64,000 bases of DNA from an uncultured Actinomycetota bacterium. Lineage in GTDB: Bacteria; Actinomycetota; Acidimicrobiia; Spongiisociales; UBA5794. The stretch's first letter is position 1, and every line of letters starts with the position of its first letter. Below the pieces are notes generated by a model. It was given only the letters and a program-made list of their open reading frames with translations, made no database searches and was not told the DNA's origin. The position numbers and the translations under genes were made by a program. This document shows positions 11,021 through 60,430 of the stretch, piece by piece. The DNA is taken from assembly GCA_963700375.1 (NCBI GenBank), contig CAVOXF010000006.1, positions 348,021-412,020 on the forward strand, read 5' to 3'.

Positions 11021-11095
11021 TGGCTGGGGGGACAGGACTCGAACCCGTACTGGATGGACCAAAACCACCTGTGCTGCCAGTTACACCACCCCCCA
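11021..11095 (-). tRNA. tRNA-Gln (anticodon UUG)
   Basis: It folds as a cloverleaf by hand. The acceptor stem is UGGGGGG/CCCCCCA. The anticodon stem is GGUGG/CCAUC and the loop UUUUGGU gives anticodon UUG. The T-loop is TTCGAGT and CCA is encoded. Confidence 0.85.
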
Positions 11096-30465: not shown

Positions 30466-30542
30466 TGGTGGAGGTGAGGGGATTTGAACCCCTGACCCCT
30501 ACGTTGCGAACGTAGTGCTCTGCCGAACTGAGCTACACCCCC
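30466..30542 (-). tRNA. tRNA-Ala (anticodon CGC)
   Basis: It folds as a cloverleaf by hand with a G3:U70 identity pair. The anticodon loop is UUCGCAA and the T-loop is TTCAAAT. CCA is encoded. Confidence 0.85.
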
Positions 30543-50747: not shown

Positions 50748-53700
50748 CTACCGCGTGGCGGCCCGCCTCGTTGCTCCCACGGCTTCGCCGAGCGGTCTCG
50801 CCTTGAGGGCGACCGCTCTTTCTTCCGCCTCGTCCAACAGCCGAGCCGCTTCGGGATCGGCTGCGTCGCGCTGGAGGAGAGCCTGTGCCAGCCGCCACTT
50901 GGCCTTGGCCGCGAGATAGGGCACATCGCTCCAGGCCTCGAGGGCGAGCCGCCAGAGGTCGGGGTCGTTCACCCCGTGTGCGCGTGCGAGGTCAGCAGTC
51001 GCCGTGGCCTCGGCAGCACGAGAGAACGGTGTCGAGACGCCGCCTGCTGCAAAACGACCGTGCCATTCATCGGCCGCCTGGATCCATTCTGACGTGGCAA
51101 TGCCCGACTCGACGCAGTCAGCAACGGTCTCGATCGCAATCGTTGCGAGGTACATCACCTGTCCCCATGCCTCATTCCTGTCGAGCAGCCGGAGACCCTC
51201 CGCTGCGACGCCGTATGCAGCCGACAGGTCTCCATGCCATCTGAGGTCTGAGACGCGACTCGCCCAGTAGGGACCCTGGAGCTGTGCATCCATCTCCTCG
51301 ATCGCCAGAGCTCCCATCCGATCGAGTTCGCGTTGCGTTGCCGCGTCATCACCACGCTCGGCCGCAAGTTCAAGGACACCGAGTGAGAGGTTGATATCGG
51401 CATGCTCCAGGTCCGCAGACTGGGGCATCGCCGCGAGGTGCTGCTGCGATTCATCCCAGCGACCCATTTCGAAGAGGAGACCTGAGGCATTCCCGTGCGG
51501 CATGACTTCCCACAAGTGCCAGCCCACCTCCCGGGCGCGCGCGATGCCCCGCTCGGTGAGTTCGAGAGCCTCCGCAAGCCGGCCGTTCTGACCCAACACC
51601 GACCCTTGGTTGACGAACACGATGAGCTGTTGCCGCAGCACCCCGAGCGTCTGCGAGCGCTCAGCCAGCAGTTTGAAGCAGTGGCTCGATTCGTCGATGT
51701 CCCCAAGACTGCCGGTCGCCGTCACCAGCGCGACGAGGGCTTGGAGTTCGGCCTTCTCGCTCCCCGTCTCCTTCGACAGCGCCAGCGCCTCCCGAGCGGT
51801 TTCGATCGCCTCGGAGTACTGGGCATTCAGCATGAGTCCCGCGGCCGTGCGCGCGAGGATCTCCGCATGGGACCGATTCGGCGGTTCCTTGGGTACAAGG
51901 CGCAGGGCTTCGTCGGCCATCTCGCGCGATTGCACCTGCCGACCCTGGAGCCACACCTGCTGGCTCATCGCGTTGATCAACAGAGCTCGTGTTCGATCAT
52001 CGAGATCCTTTCGGGCCAGCTCGGTAGAGATTCGGTCGGTCGCCGCCTCCGGGTATCCGCCGACGGCACCCTGCACTTCGACGAGTCGGCTCACGAGGTC
52101 GGCATGGTCCGCCCCTGCCGTGCGTTCCGGATCATCGAGGTCGTCCCAGAGGTCAAGGGCAAGTTCCATATAGCCAATCGCGTCTGAATCAGCGAACGCT
52201 GCCTCTGCGGCGTCGGCTGCGGCCATGGAGCACTCGAGCGCCTTGTCGGGCCGCTCGGCGTGGAGCCAGTGCTTCAACAGGCCGGCCGGTGGCGCGTTCC
52301 GCCGTTCGAGAGCCTCACCGACGGCCCGGTGCAGGCGAGTACGACGCCTGATTGCGAGTCCGTCGTACAGTGTCTGACGAACGAGCGCATGGGCGAATGC
52401 GAACTCATCGGCACCGTCACCTTCGACGACGACCCTGGCATTGACCGCCGCATCGACAACAGCATCAACCGAACGCTCATCGAGACCCGCGATTGACCCT
52501 GCCACATCGATCGAGAAGGTCGGTCCAATCACCGCCGCCACTTCGAGTGTGGATACCGCGTCTGCGCCGAGCCGATCGACCCGTGGGCCGATGACCTCGC
52601 ACAACCCTTCCGCAATGCCGTAGTCATCGATGGCCGTGTCGGAGTTCCACTGACCGTTGGCATCGACGGCGCCCTCATCCTGAAGGTGGCTCGCGATCTC
52701 TTCAATGAAGAACGGGTTGCCCTGCGTGTCCTCTGCGATCGACTCGACGACGTCCGCCCCTGCCACGGCGCCGAAACGGGCAGACACCATCTCGTGAACC
52801 TCACCGTCGGTCAACCGCTGGAGAGGAATCCGGATGATGCGGTGCTCTTGGCGGAGGTCCGTGAGGAGGCTGGGAAGAGGGTGGCTCCGAACGAGATCCG
52901 TGTCGCGGTATGTACCGATCAGGAGTGCGGTGAGCTCATCCTTGCGGGCCAGGTGGGCCAGCACCGCGACGGTGTGTTCATCGGCCCAGTGAAGATCGTC
53001 GAGCACGACCACGGTCGGTGGCTCATCTTCTTCTGACGCAAGGAGAGCGGCAAACGCCTCGGCCATCAGGTACTGCGTAGTGTCGAGGTCGGTCTGGATC
53101 GGCACCGGCAGCCCCTTGGGCACCTCGATACCGGGCACCAACTGTGCGATGTTGCCCGCAGCCGGACCAACGCCCTGCAAGAGGCGCGGTCGCGCCCCAA
53201 GCACTGAGCGGGCGACCTCGAGGAATGGCTGATAGGGAGTCGCCGCGTCCGGAGTGCACCGACCGGCAACGACGACGGCTCCCCGATCGGCGGCTGTCCG
53301 ACACCAGGCCGAGGTCAGCGCTGTCTTGCCCAACCCGGGCTCTCCGATGACAGCGGCGAACTGCACCGATTCGTTGGTTGCGGCATGGGCATCATCGAGT
53401 TGCTCGAGCGGCGCCTCGAGACCGATGAGGCTTGTCGGAATGGCACGACTGAGAAGAACAGGGAATGGAACAGCGGTGCGATCCTTCGTGCTTGCTTCCC
53501 GCGGTGTGTCGGATATCGACCAAAGCTCGATCGCATCGTCGACGCCCTTGACGTGCTGCGCGCCGATCGACGTGTATCCGAAGTGAGCTCTCCGACCAAT
53601 CAGGGACCGGACCGTGTCGGCAATGAGGAATTACCCTGCATCAGCCGCGTCGCAGACCCTCGAGGCCACAGCCACCGGAAGACCGATGACATCGCCGTCT

Positions 53701-54020
53701 TCCTTGGCGACTTCGTCGGCGTTGATCCCGATCCGTACGCCGATCCGGCGAGCCTCTTCGGCCTGGCTGCTGTAGAGGGCGATCCCTTCCTGGATGCCCT
53801 GGGCCGCTACCACGGCATCCACCGACGAGTCAAAGACGGCGAGGGCACCGTCGCCGAGATTCTTGATGAGCCGACCACCAGTCGGCAGCAGGGCGTCGCC
53901 AATGATCCGGTCGTGTTCTGCGCCAATCGCGTCGGCGACATCATCTCCGAGTCGCTCCCGGAGGCGCGTTGAACCGACAAGATCCGTGAACAGAACCGTC
54001 GCCAATCCACTCGTCGCCAT
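50748..54020 (-). CDS. Class III adenylate/guanylate cyclase - AAA/STAND ATPase - TPR regulator, interrupted by one in-frame TAA at 53631-53633
   Basis: The cyclase domain (VLFTDLVGST...IKNLGDG...GINADEV) is at 53631..54020. The same reading frame continues after the TAA as FLIADTVRSLIGRRAHF...LKGV..., then a P-loop AVIGEPGLGKTAL, a VVVLDDLHWAD motif and about 500 aa of TPR-like helices (50748..53366). Confidence 0.75.
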
Positions 54021-54141
54021 GAATCTGAACCTATCAGTGCCGCACCCGGTACCCCCCGGACAAGTCGAGGCGTTCCCCGTTCCTCGCCGATGCGGCCGAT
54101 CTCACAGCGCACGCATCCTGCGAGGGTATCCTCCGGCGCCA

Positions 54142-54192
54142 CGCCCTCGTAGCTCAGGGGATAGAGCACCGGTTTCCTAAACCGTTGTTGGG
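54142..54192 (+). pseudogene. tRNA-Arg (anticodon CCU) 5' fragment: acceptor 5' strand, D-arm, anticodon arm and variable region only
   Basis: The fragment GCCCTCGTAGCTCAGGGGATAGAGCACCGGTTTCCTAAACCGT matches the actinobacterial tRNA-Arg(CCT) 5' two-thirds. No T-arm or 3' acceptor strand follows. The antisense ORF translates as the classic tRNA artefact LYPLSYEG. Confidence 0.5.
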
Positions 54193-54653
54193 GGTCTTTC
54201 CCGCCAAGGAAGAACGGCTGGAAGCCTTGCTGTGCTTGCGTTTTCGCCTCTCATCCTCTCGCATCATTTCTCGCGTTTTCACTCCCGTTGCGGCCCAGGT
54301 GCGGCCCAAACGCGGCCCAGAGCTTCCGCACTCGAAACGAGCAGCGGCAAGTGTCCGTCGAGGAGTTTCAACGAGTATCGACACAGAACCGGCGCGGGGA
54401 ACCCGAGCAGCAGCGTCGGCCATGGTTGGCCAGCGACTTGGAGGCAGGATTCCGGGCCAGCGTTGGAGCTCGGAGCCGAATCAGGCCAATCTCCTGACCA
54501 GATCTTCATGGCGAACCACAACGCCATCCCTCCACCTTCATCGCGAGGAGTCACGTTCACGGGTGTGGTGTATGGGGGGTTCCGTTCTGAGGGTGCTTCC
54601 TGTTGGGTGATCACCGCGTCAGGCGCACAGTTGTACGTGCCAAGTGACCGTGA

Positions 54654-54863
54654 GGAGAACGCGGTGTGTGGCGCTTCGACCGGGGTGACCGAGCTACCAG
54701 CCGGCAAACGGTTCGCCGCTATCGGCGGGATCTACCCGGCGAGCTGACCGACGCGTATGCCGGATTCATCCACTTCCACGATCACCACCGAGTCCACCGA
54801 GTACTCGGATGGGCCACCCCCACCAGCCTCATCCAGGACAACCTCCCCGTAGAGCACATCTAG
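54654..54863 (+). mobile_element. Remnant of an IS481/IS3-type (rve) transposase C-terminus inside a lower-GC, non-coding-looking stretch (about 54190-54860)
   Basis: The tail ...DLPGELTDAYAGFIHFHDHHRVHRVLGWATPTSLIQ matches the integrase-core C-terminal motif (YNxxRxHxxLGxxTPxx). Stops lie directly upstream in the same frame. No intact DDE domain was found. Confidence 0.45.
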
Positions 54864-56809
54864 GCGCTCTTGATCCTCGTACCGTTCATCACGCGCCGTG
54901 ATCGGATCAGTTCGGCGACGGACCACGCTTGGAACGGGCATCCTGTTGCCTGGTGAGGCACGGTTCCTTCGGCCGTCTCCGATACGGACCCGAGGCCGTA
55001 CTCGGTGAGGTGCAATTCGAGGCCATCGAGAAGCCCCCCAAGGTCGCCGCCGGCGCGGTCGACCGCGTCGGTGAACGGGCCGATCATCCACGGCCACACG
55101 GTCCCTTGGTGGTAGGCGGCGTCGCGTTCGGCGGGGCCTCCGCGGTGGCGGCCCTGATACGCCGGGTCACGAGGAGAGAGCGAACGCAAGCCTATGGACG
55201 TCAACAGGTCAGCGCGGCACGCAGCCACGATTCGGGCCGCTTGCGCAGGGTCGTCGATGGGTCCATACGGAAGCGAGACCGCGAGGAGTTGGTTCGGCCG
55301 GAGTTCCATCGAGACTGCGCCGGAGGGGTCGATCCGATCCGCGAGACCGAGCCCGTTGACGGGGAAGGTTCGTCTGAACGACGCCACGGCCCGCTGTCGC
55401 AGGGCCTCCCACTCGCCGGCGTCGAGTCCGACCCGGGTCAGCAGATCGACCGCTGTCCCAAGCCCGTTGATCCACAGCGCCTCTACCTCGACCGGATACC
55501 CGGCCCGCGATGTCACCGGTCGGCCGTCGATACGGGCGTCCATCCATGTCAGCGCCCAGCCGTCCGCACCGCCCCGCAACAGTCCGGTCTTCTCGTCGAC
55601 GCCGATACCGAAACGAGTTCCAGCTCGGTGTGATGTCAGCACGCTCACGACGGTGTCGGCCAGGTCGGCGGCGAGATCGAGATCGCCGGTGACGGTGACG
55701 TGCCGTCCGAGGGCGTGGAGGAACCACAGGGTTCCGTCGATGGTGTTGTACTCCAGGGTTCCGACGTCGGCGGTATTGGCGAGCATGCCTTCCGATACGG
55801 TGTCGGCCGCCCGAGCGAGGACCGACCGGCCCTCTGCGGCCCGACCGGTGCACAGGAAGAGGCCCTCGTACGATGTGAACAGGTCGCGGGACCATTCCCC
55901 GAACCAGGGGTAGCCGGCGACGGCTCCGCGTCCGCCGGGTGTCTCGACGATGAATTGGTCAGCCGCCACGGCGAGGATGCGGTCGATGTCGTCCCGCGCA
56001 CCGGCCTGCACGGCGAGTGCGGCGCTGCGCGTCCGCGCTGCGGCGATGATCGCCGCAGCGTCAGTCGGCGCGGCGCCGAGATCGGTCGTCGCCGTGACTC
56101 CCATCACGTCGCCGGCCTTGAGGTCCGCGTGGAAGGTACCGGCCGCCCAGAGGTCCTCGGTGGCGCCCAGTCCTCTGGCCGCCTCCTCACGATGGAATTC
56201 GCCGCGGTACCACGATCCGCCGGGCACATAGCCAGGTCCGTCCACGCGATAGCGATCCTCGAACACGAAGCCGGACGCCGTCGGCTCGATGTCCGGGTCG
56301 GCCGCGGCGAACCGGTCCCCGTGCTGGTCACGCCAAGTGCATAGGGGCGTTACCTCCAGTCGAGCCTCACCGGTAGTGACCCGGTGGACAATCGCGACGG
56401 TGGCCGTTCCGTGCGCCATGGCCACCTCGACTTCGATCTGGACCGACCCGAGGTCATAGCGCCAACGCGGTACCCCGTCGTCCAGGTCGAATCCAGCCAG
56501 GTACTCGTCTCCGCGAGGGTCGACGGAGTTGGCCCATTCGTGGGTGGCCAGACGGATCCGATGGTCGCCGATCACCACGACCGCGTCCAACGCGGCGAGG
56601 CCGAGCATCCGTGAGGCACCGGCCGGTGCCGTGGCCGCGATCAGCAGCCCGTGATACCTTCTCGTGCGCATTCCTGCCACGGTGCCTGCGGCGTAGCCCC
56701 CCAACCCGTCGGCCACCAGCCATTCGCGCGTGTCGCGGCTTCGTCGAGGGAGCCGCAGACGCCGCGACCGAACGCGATGCGGACTCCCGGCATCATCGGG
56801 TCCAATCAC
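54860..56809 (-). CDS. Glycogen debranching enzyme-like protein (GDE_N + amylo-alpha-1,6-glucosidase GDE_C)
   Basis: It has an N-terminal GDE_N-like region and a C-terminal (alpha/alpha)6 region with YHQGTVWPW. Confidence 0.75.
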   Translation of the reverse strand: MIGPDDAGSPHRVRSRRLRLPRRSRDTREWLVADGLGGYAAGTVAGMRTRRYHGLLIAATAPAGASRMLGLAALDAVVVIGDHRIRLATHEWANSVDPRGDEYLAGFDLDDGVPRWRYDLGSVQIEVEVAMAHGTATVAIVHRVTTGEARLEVTPLCTWRDQHGDRFAAADPDIEPTASGFVFEDRYRVDGPGYVPGGSWYRGEFHREEAARGLGATEDLWAAGTFHADLKAGDVMGVTATTDLGAAPTDAAAIIAAARTRSAALAVQAGARDDIDRILAVAADQFIVETPGGRGAVAGYPWFGEWSRDLFTSYEGLFLCTGRAAEGRSVLARAADTVSEGMLANTADVGTLEYNTIDGTLWFLHALGRHVTVTGDLDLAADLADTVVSVLTSHRAGTRFGIGVDEKTGLLRGGADGWALTWMDARIDGRPVTSRAGYPVEVEALWINGLGTAVDLLTRVGLDAGEWEALRQRAVASFRRTFPVNGLGLADRIDPSGAVSMELRPNQLLAVSLPYGPIDDPAQAARIVAACRADLLTSIGLRSLSPRDPAYQGRHRGGPAERDAAYHQGTVWPWMIGPFTDAVDRAGGDLGGLLDGLELHLTEYGLGSVSETAEGTVPHQATGCPFQAWSVAELIRSRRVMNGTRIKSA

Positions 56810-59450
56810 CTGCGTAGGGATCTGGGCGACAGATAAGGTCGGCTACCAACCCGGTCCAGCCGGTCTGGTGTGTGGCCCCGAGCCCGGCGCCGTCATCCCC
56901 GTGGAAGTACTCGTTGAACACGATGTTGTCCCTCCACCGCGGGTCGTTCTGCAGCTTGTCGACCCATCCGTGGCACGGCCGACGACCGTCGGGTCCGCGG
57001 AGGAACAACGAGATGAGCCGGCGCCGGAGGGCCTCTGCAGCCTCATCGAGCGTCGCCATCTGGCCGCTGCCGGTCGGGTATTCGAGGGTGACGTCCCTTC
57101 CGAGGGAGCGAGCGGAGTTCTGCAGGCCGCGGAGCACGAGAAAGTTGACGGGCATCCACACGGGCCCGCGCCAGTTGGAGTTGCCGCCAAACATCCCCGT
57201 CGTCGACTCGGCAGGCTCGTAGTCAACGGAGACGACCGACCCGCCGAGCTCAACCCGCACCGGGTGGTCCTGGTGGTATTTGGACAAAGCGCGCAACCCG
57301 TAGGGAGAGAGAAACTCGGCCTCGTCGAACACCCGGCCGAGGACCCGGACTCCGTCTCCCGGGGGAATGACCCCAAGGGCGATTCTGTCCCCGTCGGCGT
57401 CGGCAATCACCCGTCCGCGTGTCCCGGCGAGCGCCTCGACGTCGAGACGTCCGCGAGTCGAGGCGAAGCGCTTGTTCAGGGTTCCCAGCGATCCCAGGGC
57501 TTCGGGACCGAGCACGGCGGTCGCCATGAGTGGCAGTACGCCAACGATCGATCGAACCTTGATGGGCACCCCTGCGCCGTCGGCGGAGCGGAATACGTCG
57601 TAGTAGAAGCCATCCTCCGCATCCCACAGGCCCGACGCCCGCATGGCGTCGACGATCAGGACGTAGTGCGCTACGAACTTCACTTCGATGTCCGTCCATG
57701 CGTCGTCTTCCTCGGCAAGGACTCTGGCCATTTCCAGGAGGTTGAGCGCGTAGAACGCCATCCATGTGGTTCCGTCCACTTGCTCGAGGGTCCCCCCGGG
57801 GGGGAGGTTGGACCGGTCGATGGCACTGATGTTGTCCAATCCGAGGAAGCCGCCGGAGAAGACGTTGTTGCCGTCCGGGTCGACGCGGTTGACCCACCAG
57901 GTGAAGTTCAGCAGCAGCTTCGGCAGCAGGCGTGCAAGGAAGGTTCGATCGCGCCGACCGTCGATATCCCACACGTGCAGTGCGGCCCAGGCGTGCACCG
58001 GCGGGTTCACGTCACCGAACGCCCATTCGTACGCCGGCAGTGCCCCATTGGGGTGTTGGAACCATTCCCGGCACAGCGCCAGCAGCTGGTACTTGGCGAA
58101 TGCAGGATCGAGATGTGCCAGGGCGATCGTATGGAAGGCCAGGTCCCAGGCGGCGAACCACGGGTATTCCCAGGGGTCGGGCATCGACAAGATGTCTCTG
58201 GCGTCCATGTGCGTCCACCCGGCATTTCGGCCACGTCGACGTTCCGGCGGCGGTTGCGGCTGGGTCGGGTCGCCGTCCAGCCAGCGTTTCAGGTCGTAGT
58301 AGTAGAACTGCTTTCCCCAGATCATGCCCGCGAATGCTTGACGCGCAACGAGGTGCTCGTCGTCGTTGGCCGTCACCGGGATGACCTCGTCGTAGAACTC
58401 GTCTGCCTCCGTGCGTCGCGCCGCGAGGACCTTGTCGAACGGCTTGCCGAACGCCGGTTTCGTGGACGGTGGACGCAGGCGGACGCGCACGACCTGGGTC
58501 TCTCCCGGCGCAACGGACAGCTGATACCAGGCGGCGCACTTGGTCCCCTTGCGATCGGGATTCACCGTCGGTGCGCCGTCCACGACGTGGTCGTTGATGC
58601 CGTCCTTCGCGTACGCGGGTGAATCCTCGGAACCGTACAACCGTTCCAGATTGGTGTCGTTGTCGCAGAACAGCAGATCCGGCGACGAACCATCCGGCGC
58701 GACATCGAGATCCCAAAAGAGATCGCCGAATACGGGATGCTCCACGGTGACACGGTCGGGCTTGGCTGTCTGCAACACCGGGCGGTCCGCCTCGGCTGCC
58801 CATGACCAGGTGTTGCGGAACCACACGTGAGGAAGCACATGCAGCGTTGCCTGGTCCGGGCCGGCGTTTGTGACGCTGATCTCCATGAGCACGTCGTGCG
58901 GATCGGCCTTGGCAAATGCCACGTCGACCACCCAGTACCGGTCGTCATCGAACACGCCGGTATCCATCAACTCGTATTCGGGCTGGCTCTGGTCACGCCG
59001 ACCGTTCTCTGCCACCAGCTCGCCGTACGGAAACTCGGCCTGGGGGTAGTGGTAGCGCCACCGCAACCACGAGTGGCTGGGGAGCGCGTCGAGGTACCAC
59101 CAGTATTCCTTGACGTCCTCGCCGTGGTTCCCTTGCGGACCGGTGAGGCCGAACATGCGTTCCTTGAGGATCGGGTCGCGACCATTCCACAGGGCGAGGG
59201 CCATGCAGAGGTTCTGGTGCACGTCGCTGATGCCGGCCATGCCGTCTTCGCCCCAGCGGAAGGCACGGGATCGGGCGTGATCGTGAGGGAAGAAGTCCCA
59301 TGCCGTACCGTCGCGGCTGTAGTCCTCCCGCACGGTCCCCCAGGAACGCTCGGATAGGTAGGGCCCCCAGTGGTACCAGGGCGTCGACTCGGCCAAACCG
59401 TCCTCGGGATGGCCGAAGGACTCGACTCGCTTGCGTTCGGCACCGCTCAT
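56793..59450 (-). CDS. GH63-family glycoside hydrolase (processing alpha-glucosidase / mannosylglycerate-hydrolase-like)
   Basis: It is about 885 aa with GH63 (alpha/alpha)6 catalytic-domain signatures (WGKQFYYYD, GGFLGLDNI, GPVWMPVNFL). An ATG at 59450 overlaps the gluconolactonase stop with ATGA. Confidence 0.7.
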   Translation of the reverse strand: MSGAERKRVESFGHPEDGLAESTPWYHWGPYLSERSWGTVREDYSRDGTAWDFFPHDHARSRAFRWGEDGMAGISDVHQNLCMALALWNGRDPILKERMFGLTGPQGNHGEDVKEYWWYLDALPSHSWLRWRYHYPQAEFPYGELVAENGRRDQSQPEYELMDTGVFDDDRYWVVDVAFAKADPHDVLMEISVTNAGPDQATLHVLPHVWFRNTWSWAAEADRPVLQTAKPDRVTVEHPVFGDLFWDLDVAPDGSSPDLLFCDNDTNLERLYGSEDSPAYAKDGINDHVVDGAPTVNPDRKGTKCAAWYQLSVAPGETQVVRVRLRPPSTKPAFGKPFDKVLAARRTEADEFYDEVIPVTANDDEHLVARQAFAGMIWGKQFYYYDLKRWLDGDPTQPQPPPERRRGRNAGWTHMDARDILSMPDPWEYPWFAAWDLAFHTIALAHLDPAFAKYQLLALCREWFQHPNGALPAYEWAFGDVNPPVHAWAALHVWDIDGRRDRTFLARLLPKLLLNFTWWVNRVDPDGNNVFSGGFLGLDNISAIDRSNLPPGGTLEQVDGTTWMAFYALNLLEMARVLAEEDDAWTDIEVKFVAHYVLIVDAMRASGLWDAEDGFYYDVFRSADGAGVPIKVRSIVGVLPLMATAVLGPEALGSLGTLNKRFASTRGRLDVEALAGTRGRVIADADGDRIALGVIPPGDGVRVLGRVFDEAEFLSPYGLRALSKYHQDHPVRVELGGSVVSVDYEPAESTTGMFGGNSNWRGPVWMPVNFLVLRGLQNSARSLGRDVTLEYPTGSGQMATLDEAAEALRRRLISLFLRGPDGRRPCHGWVDKLQNDPRWRDNIVFNEYFHGDDGAGLGATHQTGWTGLVADLICRPDPYAGDWTR

Positions 59451-60430
59451 GGGGCGCTCCTTCTCTTGGTTGGTGGATCGATGACCCGACCGGTGATCGT
59501 CTGCCACCAGTCGGTGTCCGGGATGAATCGTGTGGCGGGTCGGCCCGTAGCGTGCGTATCGGTCCGGTATACGAGGCCGGCGGCGGGCTCAGTGCGACGC
59601 CGCGCATCGGTCCAGCCTTCGGTCCCGGTCGTGACGTAGAGCCGGTTCATCTCAACGCCTCCGAAGGCGCAGCTCGTGGTTTGTTGGGCCGGAACGGGCA
59701 CGACGGCGCGCTGTGAACCATCCGGTGCATAGCGATTGACCCGTCCCCCTCCGTAGATGGCGATCCACAGGTCTCCGGCTGCGTCCACGGTCAATCCGTC
59801 TGGCGCCCCAAAATCGTCGGGCACGGTGATAAGAGCCGTTCCCCCGGAAATCGTGCCTCTGAAGGCGTCGAACTCGAAGGCGTAGACGATTCGAGGACCG
59901 CTATCCACCATGTACATGGTGCCGCCGTCGGGACTCCACCCTATGCCGTTGGGGATCGTCAGGCCGTCGAGTATCTGTTCCGTCTGACCGGTCGGGCCGA
60001 GGCGGTGGAGGGCGCCGCCTCCCGTGTGGTGATCATCCGCCATGGATCCGGCCCAGAAGCGGCCCTGAGGATCGCAGGCGCCATCGTTCATCCGTGCCCC
60101 GACTGGAGCCACCTCGACGATGGCCCGCAAGGGCCCGTCGGGAGCCAGATAGACGAAGCCTTGCCCGGCCGCGAGCAGCCAGCCGTCATCTCCCTCGATC
60201 GGCGCGATCGCACCTACCGTCCCGGGAACCTCGTACACACGGACAGGCGTCAGCCCGCCGTCATCATCAACCGTGTCCCGGTAGACCCGTCCAGCCAGGA
60301 TGTCTACCCGCAGCAGCTCCTGGCGGCGGTCGTCCCATCGCGCACCTTCGCCGAGGACGGTCTGGTGAGCCGTGCAGGCCACGACCGTGGCTTCCCCTTC
60401 TATCTCGAACGAGTCGTCCCGGACTGTCAT
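59447..60430 (-). CDS. SMP-30/gluconolactonase/LRE-like beta-propeller protein
   Basis: It has SGL-family repeats (NDGACDPQGRFWAGSM, PNGIGWSPDG, PDGLTVDAAGDLWIA). Confidence 0.75.
   Translation of the reverse strand: MTVRDDSFEIEGEATVVACTAHQTVLGEGARWDDRRQELLRVDILAGRVYRDTVDDDGGLTPVRVYEVPGTVGAIAPIEGDDGWLLAAGQGFVYLAPDGPLRAIVEVAPVGARMNDGACDPQGRFWAGSMADDHHTGGGALHRLGPTGQTEQILDGLTIPNGIGWSPDGGTMYMVDSGPRIVYAFEFDAFRGTISGGTALITVPDDFGAPDGLTVDAAGDLWIAIYGGGRVNRYAPDGSQRAVVPVPAQQTTSCAFGGVEMNRLYVTTGTEGWTDARRRTEPAAGLVYRTDTHATGRPATRFIPDTDWWQTITGRVIDPPTKRRSAP

Follow-up and report, generated by a model that had tools for sequence, protein, structure and literature searches.

tRNA genes are classic attachment (att) sites, and site-specific integration normally regenerates the tRNA and leaves behind 3' fragments rather than 5' fragments. 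In this report, we describe a tRNA gene that lies in the same intergenic gap as the debris of a mobile element, an insertion sequence (IS) of the IS481 family, in a 64-kb stretch of DNA from an uncultured actinomycete. The stretch, which we call the window and to which all positions refer unless a contig is named, is part of an 830-kb metagenome contig. Two described IS481-family elements, ISLxc2 and ISRe46, provide the closest models for the debris; they produce an NCTAGN target duplication, begin their inverted repeat with TGT, and use the TAG of the right target copy as the stop codon of their transposase (PMC2516522, PMC6794481). A sequence-only reading of the locus had joined the two features into one history, in which an element integrated in the tRNA-Arg(CCU) gene, or caused a deletion through it, and then decayed. 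Our results favor a different history. The locus is, with fair probability, a composite scar of unrelated events that took place at different times, in which a deletion ran through the tRNA gene after the IS had already decayed.

The tRNA-Arg(CCU) fragment and its breakpoint

The left part of the scar consists of two features.

54143-54184, plus strand: 5' fragment of a tRNA-Arg(CCU) gene, tRNA positions 1 to 42, a pseudogene (42/42 identity to positions 1016-1057 of contig L084)
54184/54185, no strand: rearrangement breakpoint inside the tRNA gene, between tRNA positions 42 and 43 (end of blastn identity to L084)

The fragment starts at 54143, not at 54142 as had been read, and its anticodon CCT occupies 54176-54178. 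From 54143, the sequence runs GCCCTCGTAGCTCAGGGGATAGAGCACCGGTTTCCTAAACCG and is then followed by the unrelated TTGTTGGGGGTC. The fragment retains the acceptor 5' strand, the D-arm, and all of the anticodon arm except the last base of its 3' strand. The only tRNAs that ARAGORN called in the window were a tRNA-Gln (11021-11095) and a tRNA-Ala (30466-30542); it made no call around 54143, where an intact-tRNA call had been named beforehand as the outcome that would contradict a truncation. A scan of the window with Rfam at gathering thresholds agreed with this set of tRNAs. With relaxed thresholds, the Rfam tRNA model (RF00005) scored 25.8 bits at 54143-54196, below its gathering score of 29, in an alignment in which 19 T-arm positions were collapsed to 1; at E ≤ 10, Rfam returned nothing over 53900-55100 beyond this subthreshold tRNA. 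Together with the comparison to L084 described below, these results confirm that the T-arm and the 3' acceptor strand are missing.

Metagenome contigs were scanned for an exact match to the 42-nt fragment preceded by 7 nt of its flank, and a single contig, L084, was returned. Its positions 1-1057 correspond to window 53128-54184 at 99.8% identity (blastn; 2 mismatches in 1057 bp), and L084:1016-1090 is an intact 75-nt tRNA-Arg(cct) according to ARAGORN, which folds as a cloverleaf (z = -3.1). The identity between L084 and the window ends precisely after tRNA position 42. From there, the intact gene in L084 continues with GGTGTCGGAAGTTCGAATCTTCCCGAGGGCG, and downstream of it lie a GNAT-like open reading frame (ORF), then a small membrane protein, and then an alpha/beta hydrolase. 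Neither the DNA of L084 1058-3605 nor the proteins encoded downstream of the tRNA had a match anywhere in the window, and the genuine tRNA 3' segment was not found in all 64 kb, on either strand, with up to 3 mismatches. Because the identity stops after position 42 and the downstream genes of L084 are not in the window, 54184/54185 is a real, sharp rearrangement breakpoint, most simply read as that of a deletion. The view that the locus is the scar of a DNA rearrangement thus finds direct support in a near-identical contig that has the intact tRNA and then different genes.

Neither a T-arm nor a proper acceptor stem can form from the fragment, which is therefore a dead pseudogene. The stretch 54143-54184 neither forms a complete cloverleaf nor is called by tRNA finders. 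What it has in common with L084 is what a truncated tRNA-Arg(CCU) pseudogene should have, namely, 42/42 nt of the tRNA together with 1015 bp of upstream flank at 99.8% identity. We considered two other identities for the sequence around the breakpoint. Positions 54185-54206 resembled a T-arm slightly by eye, as might be expected if the 3' half were mutated and not deleted; a local alignment with tRNA positions 43-76 gave a score lower than the mean of random window segments (p = 0.72), which rules this out. A tRNA-like RNA devoid of the T-arm, for which cmscan paired GCCCUCG with UGGGGGU, was also rejected, as the fold (z = -0.6) was no better than those of shuffled sequences. In nine well-supported genes of the window, AGG codons are used at a frequency of 3.3 per 1000 codons. 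These codons must rely on another tRNA-Arg outside the window, either a second CCU copy or a UCU tRNA by wobble.

The IS481-family remnant and the DNA beside it

The right part of the gap is made up of the following features.

54660-54749, plus strand: fragment of an IS481-family transposase, residues ~110-138 (DRAT..RRYxRDxPGEL, just before the DDE core; hidden Markov model [HMM] iE 3.7e-8)
54750-54858, plus strand: C-terminal fragment of an IS481-family transposase, residues ~285-320, running into the right inverted repeat; the element ends at 54858 (HMM iE 2e-12)
54666-54863, plus strand: 65-aa ORF, an in-frame fusion of the two transposase fragments, with no helix-turn-helix (HTH) and no DDE core (from the ORF list)
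54859-54864, no strand: TCTAGG, an NCTAGN-type target hexamer flanking the right end of the IS (read from the sequence)
54860-56809, minus strand: intact glycogen debranching enzyme (GDE) gene (Pfam GDE_N and GDE_C, E 2.5e-87 and 3.4e-57)

An HMM built from four IS481-family transposases gave two matches only (54660-54749 and 54750-54860), and none of the six frames showed transposase similarity upstream of 54660. When the two pieces were compared with full-length relatives, tblastn E values ranged from 1e-10 to 1e-19. The first piece is 79% identical in amino acid sequence to the transposase of L088 (E 8e-12, tblastn) and 73% identical in nucleotide sequence to L088:1049-1133 (blastn); the second (54750-54858) shows 87% nucleotide identity to L087 and 82% to L088. 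The NCBIfam IS481 model (NF033577) matched the 65-aa ORF weakly, with E = 0.013 over profile positions 241-283 of 284 and a score of 15 bits versus a cutoff of 224. The presence of an IS481-like tail, as had been read, was supported by the HMM and, weakly, by NCBIfam. The description of the tail as the C-terminal 45 aa was not, as the ORF joins ~36 C-terminal residues to 29 residues from before the catalytic core. The in-frame fusion of the pieces implies that ~146 codons with the DDE core were deleted. The N terminus is also missing, and the remnant amounts to ~200 bp (54660-54858) of roughly 1065 bp. Judged from its sequence, the 65-aa fusion ORF is presumed to be nonfunctional. A perfect 9-bp tandem duplication (CCACCGAGT twice) is present at 54785-54802 in the C-terminal fragment and encodes HHRVHRV.

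Homologue searches yielded few relatives, mostly fragments, and the close relatives are annotated as proteins of 65-151 aa. Near full-length copies of the element were found on two of those contigs, L087 (transposase at 304-1269) and L088. The IS of L088 is 1065 bp long (616-1680), with inverted repeats GTGTG...CGGGGAGGTTGTCC and (C/G)TAG flanks, and the reference elements L085 and L086 have the same end structure and are likewise flanked by CTAG. In L087:1-310, no left inverted repeat is recognizable and similarity to L088 starts only at the region of the start codon, so this copy too seems to be 5'-truncated or recombined. Another truncated copy of the lineage, consisting of the C-terminal ~100 codons with a frameshift, is situated upstream of an Lcl_C-domain gene (L001:343-565 and L002:1751-1973). 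It is 95.6% identical over 90 bp to window 54760-54849, and a longer fragment from L002 matches plasmid genes annotated as IS481-family transposase with ~53% identity. L085 and L086 are two reference elements of this plasmid set, and the closest full-length relatives likewise match plasmid genes with that annotation.

The right end of the element is well defined. The right inverted repeat, given as its reverse complement, is TGTGCTCTACGGGGAGGTTGTCC; the element ends with ...GAGCACA at 54858, followed by TCTAGG. In the alignment to L085, L086, L087, and L088, this end corresponds base for base to their right inverted repeats. TAG at 54861-54863 terminates the transposase-remnant ORF, and CTA at 54860-54862 is, on the minus strand, the stop codon of the GDE gene. 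The two stop codons overlap in a single CTAG at 54860-54863, and the remark that the tail abuts the 3' end of the debranching-enzyme gene is therefore exact. On the left, we found no convincing inverted repeat, only a TGTGCT at 54231, and no left copy matching the NCTAGN target.

The truncated remnant adjoins the GDE gene in three other assemblies, in each case without indels relative to the window: L003 (94.8% identity over 54290-55388), L089 (reached via the cluster member P0128; 96.7% over 54652-57435), and a Logan contig from ERR12037370, which encodes exactly the 65-aa and 82-aa ORFs of the window. The counterpart of the 65-aa ORF in L003 (P0001) is 91% identical, and all 5 nucleotide differences fall on codon positions 1 or 2. 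At the nucleotide level, the IS remnant (54660-54859) is 97.5% identical to that of L003. As the same truncated remnant is found in strains that have diverged by 3-5%, sequence comparison indicates that the IS insertion, the 5' truncation, and the internal deletion predate this divergence.

The GDE protein is 100% identical to the public protein P0007, which is encoded on a contig of 830,685 bp. P0007 (618 aa) starts 31 codons downstream of the start of the longest GDE ORF. The GDE gene is paired with an MGH1/GH63-like glycoside hydrolase gene (54860-59507 for the pair, minus strand). Taking the GTG at 56809 as the GDE start, the two genes overlap by 17 nt. The pair is syntenic across many metagenome-assembled genomes of Actinomycetota, Chloroflexota, and Dormiibacterota. 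We compared 80 loci from other genomes that carry GDE relatives (57-77% amino acid identity). Synteny at these loci is confined to the GDE/glycoside hydrolase pair and the genes to the right of 54860. No tRNA-Arg gene was found near GDE in the 33 best of the 80 loci, and no homologues of the L084 flank genes were found in any of the 80. At this distance, the 80 loci do not reveal what the ancestral arrangement was.

Between the tRNA fragment and the IS remnant lies DNA of a third kind.

54185-54659, no strand: orphan noncoding DNA, 475 bp; from 54290 on, also present in a second strain (L003)
54289-54321, plus strand: three tandem 11-bp units (TGCGGCCCAGA-like, with the core GCGGCCCA three times; Tandem Repeats Finder, period 11, 3.0 copies, score 45)

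No codon-position GC periodicity was detected across 54150-54662 and neither Pfam nor NCBIfam gave a match in 54185-54659, in agreement with the earlier statement that no convincing ORF is present. The lower GC content noted in the same reading is only marginal. The GC content of 54185-54659 is ~0.61 versus 0.648 for the whole window; values in the stretch concerned are ~0.57-0.65, versus 0.62-0.66 in the left flank and 0.67-0.72 in GDE. Searches of plasmid and phage DNA with the orphan DNA gave no match, and a search of 1.84 billion representative proteins revealed no real relative; the single protein match was an artefact, consisting of eleven weak matches to a tandem repeat of a 2687-aa protein. 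Viral contigs were scanned for the 11-bp repeat array and for the tRNA 3' half, and neither was found.

Weak collinear tblastn matches to distant transposases prompted us to consider the orphan DNA as the decayed N-terminal third and 5' untranslated region of the IS. We rejected this origin on several grounds. The closest full-length relatives (L087 and L088) match nothing upstream of 54660, and the HMM from the four transposases gave no signal there in six frames. A frameshift-tolerant profile alignment of the N-terminal 110 residues scored 39.8 versus 35.5 +/- 5.3 for the null (p~0.18), and a global nucleotide alignment to L088 was gap-ridden and unconvincing.

The orphan DNA is 94.1% identical to that of L003, and the noncoding scar is more conserved relative to L003 than are the third-codon positions of GDE (~11% different). 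A 96-nt block (54400-54495) has no differences from L003 and folds on the plus strand with z ~-2, slightly better than shuffled sequences. The 11-bp GCGGCCCA units are spaced at one helical turn and are kept in L003 with 1 substitution. The conservation of the scar could be due to chance, recent recombination, or constraint. It is conceivable only at a stretch that the gap between the tRNA and GDE is functional, as a domesticated regulatory region, a small RNA, or a mini-protein derived from the IS481 element; the arguments for this are the conserved IS remnant and orphan DNA, the invariant 96-nt block, the helically phased repeats, and a 65-aa fusion that is open in all strains seen.

Proposed order of events and rival explanations

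We propose that the composite scar arose in the following order. An IS481-family element would first have inserted at the CTAG overlapping the GDE stop codon, as is typical of the family, and would then have lost its left end, its N-terminal 110 codons, and, by an internal in-frame deletion, its DDE core, leaving an immobile 200-bp remnant that became fixed in related strains. Our results demonstrate these two steps. Much later, a rearrangement would have removed everything from tRNA position 43 rightwards. The breakpoint is demonstrated as well, and the type of event is what we infer. The 42 nt of the tRNA 5' part would thereby have been joined to preexisting noncoding DNA at a distance of 475 bp from the IS remnant, in the simplest reading through a spontaneous deletion by illegitimate recombination.

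Two considerations separate the events. The IS remnant could not itself have caused the break in the tRNA gene, because it has no catalytic core and no left end. Between it and the breakpoint, in addition, there are 475 bp of non-IS DNA. Because the intact-tRNA contig L084 has diverged by only 0.2% from the window, we infer that the truncation of the tRNA is recent and that the IS remnant was already immobile by then. The causal link between the IS and the truncated tRNA in the sequence-only reading was therefore not sustained: the remnant is 475 bp away and anchored to the GDE side by its right repeat and the CTAG, it lacks a left end and a catalytic core, and its truncated form is the same in L003 and L089 (3-5% diverged), versus 0.2% for L084.

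Several points weigh against this order of events. The junction at 54184/54185 is seen only in the assembly of the window itself, and no independent contig crosses it, as L003 and the Logan contig stop at ~54277-54290 and L089 stops at 54652. The parental sequence on the right side is unseen, so that a deletion looks no different from a segmental duplication, an inversion, or a translocation. The argument on relative age sets the divergence of different loci in different contigs side by side. Finally, the right inverted repeat begins with the same 6 nt as the TGTGCT hexamer at 54231, which is located 432 nt upstream of residue 111, with an equivalent distance of 433 nt in L088. The hexamer could mean that the left part of the IS persists, degraded beyond recognition. 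Beyond the hexamer, similarity to the right inverted repeat at 54231 is at chance level (8/20 positions, compared by eye).

Among the alternatives, one accepts the breakpoint as real and differs in the type of event. It holds that an inversion, a translocation, or a segmental duplication took place, so that the 3' part of the tRNA or a second copy is elsewhere and tRNA-Arg(CCU) has been kept. The breakpoint is visible from one side only, the window covers 64 kb of the 830-kb contig, AGG is still used (3.3 per 1000), and divergence of paralogues could in principle account for the 2 mismatches that separate L084 from the window over 1057 bp. Against this, neither the 54 kb to the left nor the 9.8 kb to the right contains the 3' segment of the tRNA. 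L084 runs unbroken from the shared flank through the tRNA into its own right flank, which speaks against a second flank copy in the L084 genome and is silent on the genome of the window. We regard this alternative as unlikely, though it is the strongest of those considered.

Another explanation, which we consider distinctly improbable, is that the junction is an assembly chimera of the metagenome contig, the true genome having an intact L084-type locus and the orphan, IS, and GDE region elsewhere. The missing independent support for the junction would fit, as would the two short-read contigs that end at 54277-54290 and the 99.8%-identical contig that continues differently. But the two sides have no repeat in common by which an assembler could be misled: the window contains no other copy of the region, and the right flank of L084 has no similarity to 54185-54700. 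Chimeric joins normally occur at shared sequence and not in the middle of a unique tRNA gene, and the contig is long (830 kb). As a separate observation, L003 and the ERR12037370 Logan contig are independent short-read contigs that end within ~13 bp of each other near 54277-54290. Such coincident ends suggest that the assembly graph branches ~100 bp right of the junction, either because strains vary or because a repeat has its boundary there.

We give very little probability to the idea, in essence that of the sequence-only reading, that the tRNA gene was truncated by the IS481-family element, through deletion of adjacent DNA or through recombination of two IS copies of which one was in the tRNA or beside it. 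IS elements commonly make adjacent deletions, and a remnant of the family lies in the same intergenic gap; in addition, the TGTGCT at 54231 is preceded by CCTTGC (NCTAGN with one mismatch) and is found at the distance from residue 111 that is expected of a left repeat. The sequence that abuts the tRNA, from 54185 onward, is nevertheless not an IS end, the match of 54231 to the right repeat is limited to the 8/20 positions counted by eye, and transposase similarity is absent upstream of 54660 in every frame. A remnant that has no DDE core and is present in identical form in 3-5% diverged strains was already dead, and even with a left repeat at 54231, 46 bp of non-IS DNA would remain before the breakpoint.

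Least tenable is the scar of a tRNA-targeted integrative element (a prophage, a genomic island, or an actinomycete integrative element), left by imprecise excision or by an integrase recombining an anticodon-loop core with a secondary site: the break is only 4 nt 3' of the anticodon loop of a gene of a class known for att sites, and the three 11-bp GCGGCCCA repeats at 54289-54321 are imaginable as arm-type binding sites, but there is no integrase, excisionase, or other mobility gene within ~10 kb on either side (Pfam scans of ORFs), no att-like repeat of the tRNA 3' end in the window (up to 3 mismatches) or beyond the single copy in L084, a 5' fragment where integration would regenerate the tRNA and leave a 3' one, no element-like gene downstream of the tRNA in L084, and no tRNA 3' half or repeat in viral contigs. 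The proposal that an element integrated in the tRNA gene finds no support in the same evidence, as no integrase is encoded within ~10 kb, no copy of the tRNA 3' end exists in the 64 kb, and the tRNA was not left intact. The locus thus has no adjacent integrase, no attL/attR repeat, and no regenerated tRNA.

The ORFs within ~10 kb are those for a cyclase-AAA-TPR regulator, an ABC transporter, an AMP-binding enzyme, an S9 peptidase, and GDE, and further for the MGH1/GH63-like hydrolase, a gluconolactonase, a glucose dehydrogenase, and a pyridine-nucleotide oxidoreductase. The regulator gene is the left neighbor of the tRNA fragment.

50748-54020, minus strand: cyclase-AAA-TPR regulator gene (AAA_16), one frame of ~1090 codons (Pfam)

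The regulator reading frame contains a single in-frame stop (...DAADAG*FLIAD...), whose codon at 53631-53633 is formed by the first three bases of the ORF at 53631-54020. This stop is not a sequencing error, because the 129-aa ORF upstream of it is unchanged in the independent contig L084. The regulator gene is probably a recent pseudogene.

Relation to known systems

With regard to annotation, our results indicate that the tRNA-Arg(CCU) fragment should be labeled as a pseudogene and the 65-aa ORF as an IS481-family remnant; beyond this, the locus has little import. Near-identical strains of an uncultured actinomycete differ here by a structural polymorphism of recent origin. The locus also illustrates two known points, namely, that in an IS481 insertion at CTAG a single palindrome can supply the stop codons of the transposase and of a host gene convergent with it, and that a tRNA gene beside mobile-element debris does not by itself imply integration there. 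Should no further tRNA-Arg(CCU) be encoded in the source genome, the locus would represent a natural, recent loss of the AGG-specific tRNA in a genome in which AGG codons are still used.

One comparison is with tRNA genes that serve as att sites for islands and prophages. The tRNA in the window is likewise at a boundary between conserved and variable DNA, but it is the 5' part that is present, the tRNA was not regenerated, and there is neither an integrase nor a direct repeat. The IS remnant corresponds to actinobacterial IS481 elements such as ISLxc2 of Leifsonia xyli and ISRe46 of Rhodococcus equi. Its transposase fragments match the family, its right inverted repeat starts with TGTG... and contains ...GGGAGGTTG, and it is inserted at CTAG with an NCTAGN flank whose TAG is the transposase stop. 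As in TnRErm46 next to parB, the palindromic CTAG also holds the stop codon of the host gene. Unlike those elements, the remnant is devoid of the DDE core, the N-terminal HTH, a recognizable left inverted repeat, and the left direct repeat. From truncated tRNA pseudogenes at rearrangement junctions, the tRNA fragment differs in nothing substantive; identity to the orthologue extends up to a sharp break, unrelated DNA follows, and a near-identical strain has the intact gene. The locus is thus an ordinary composite scar of known kinds and not a new element.

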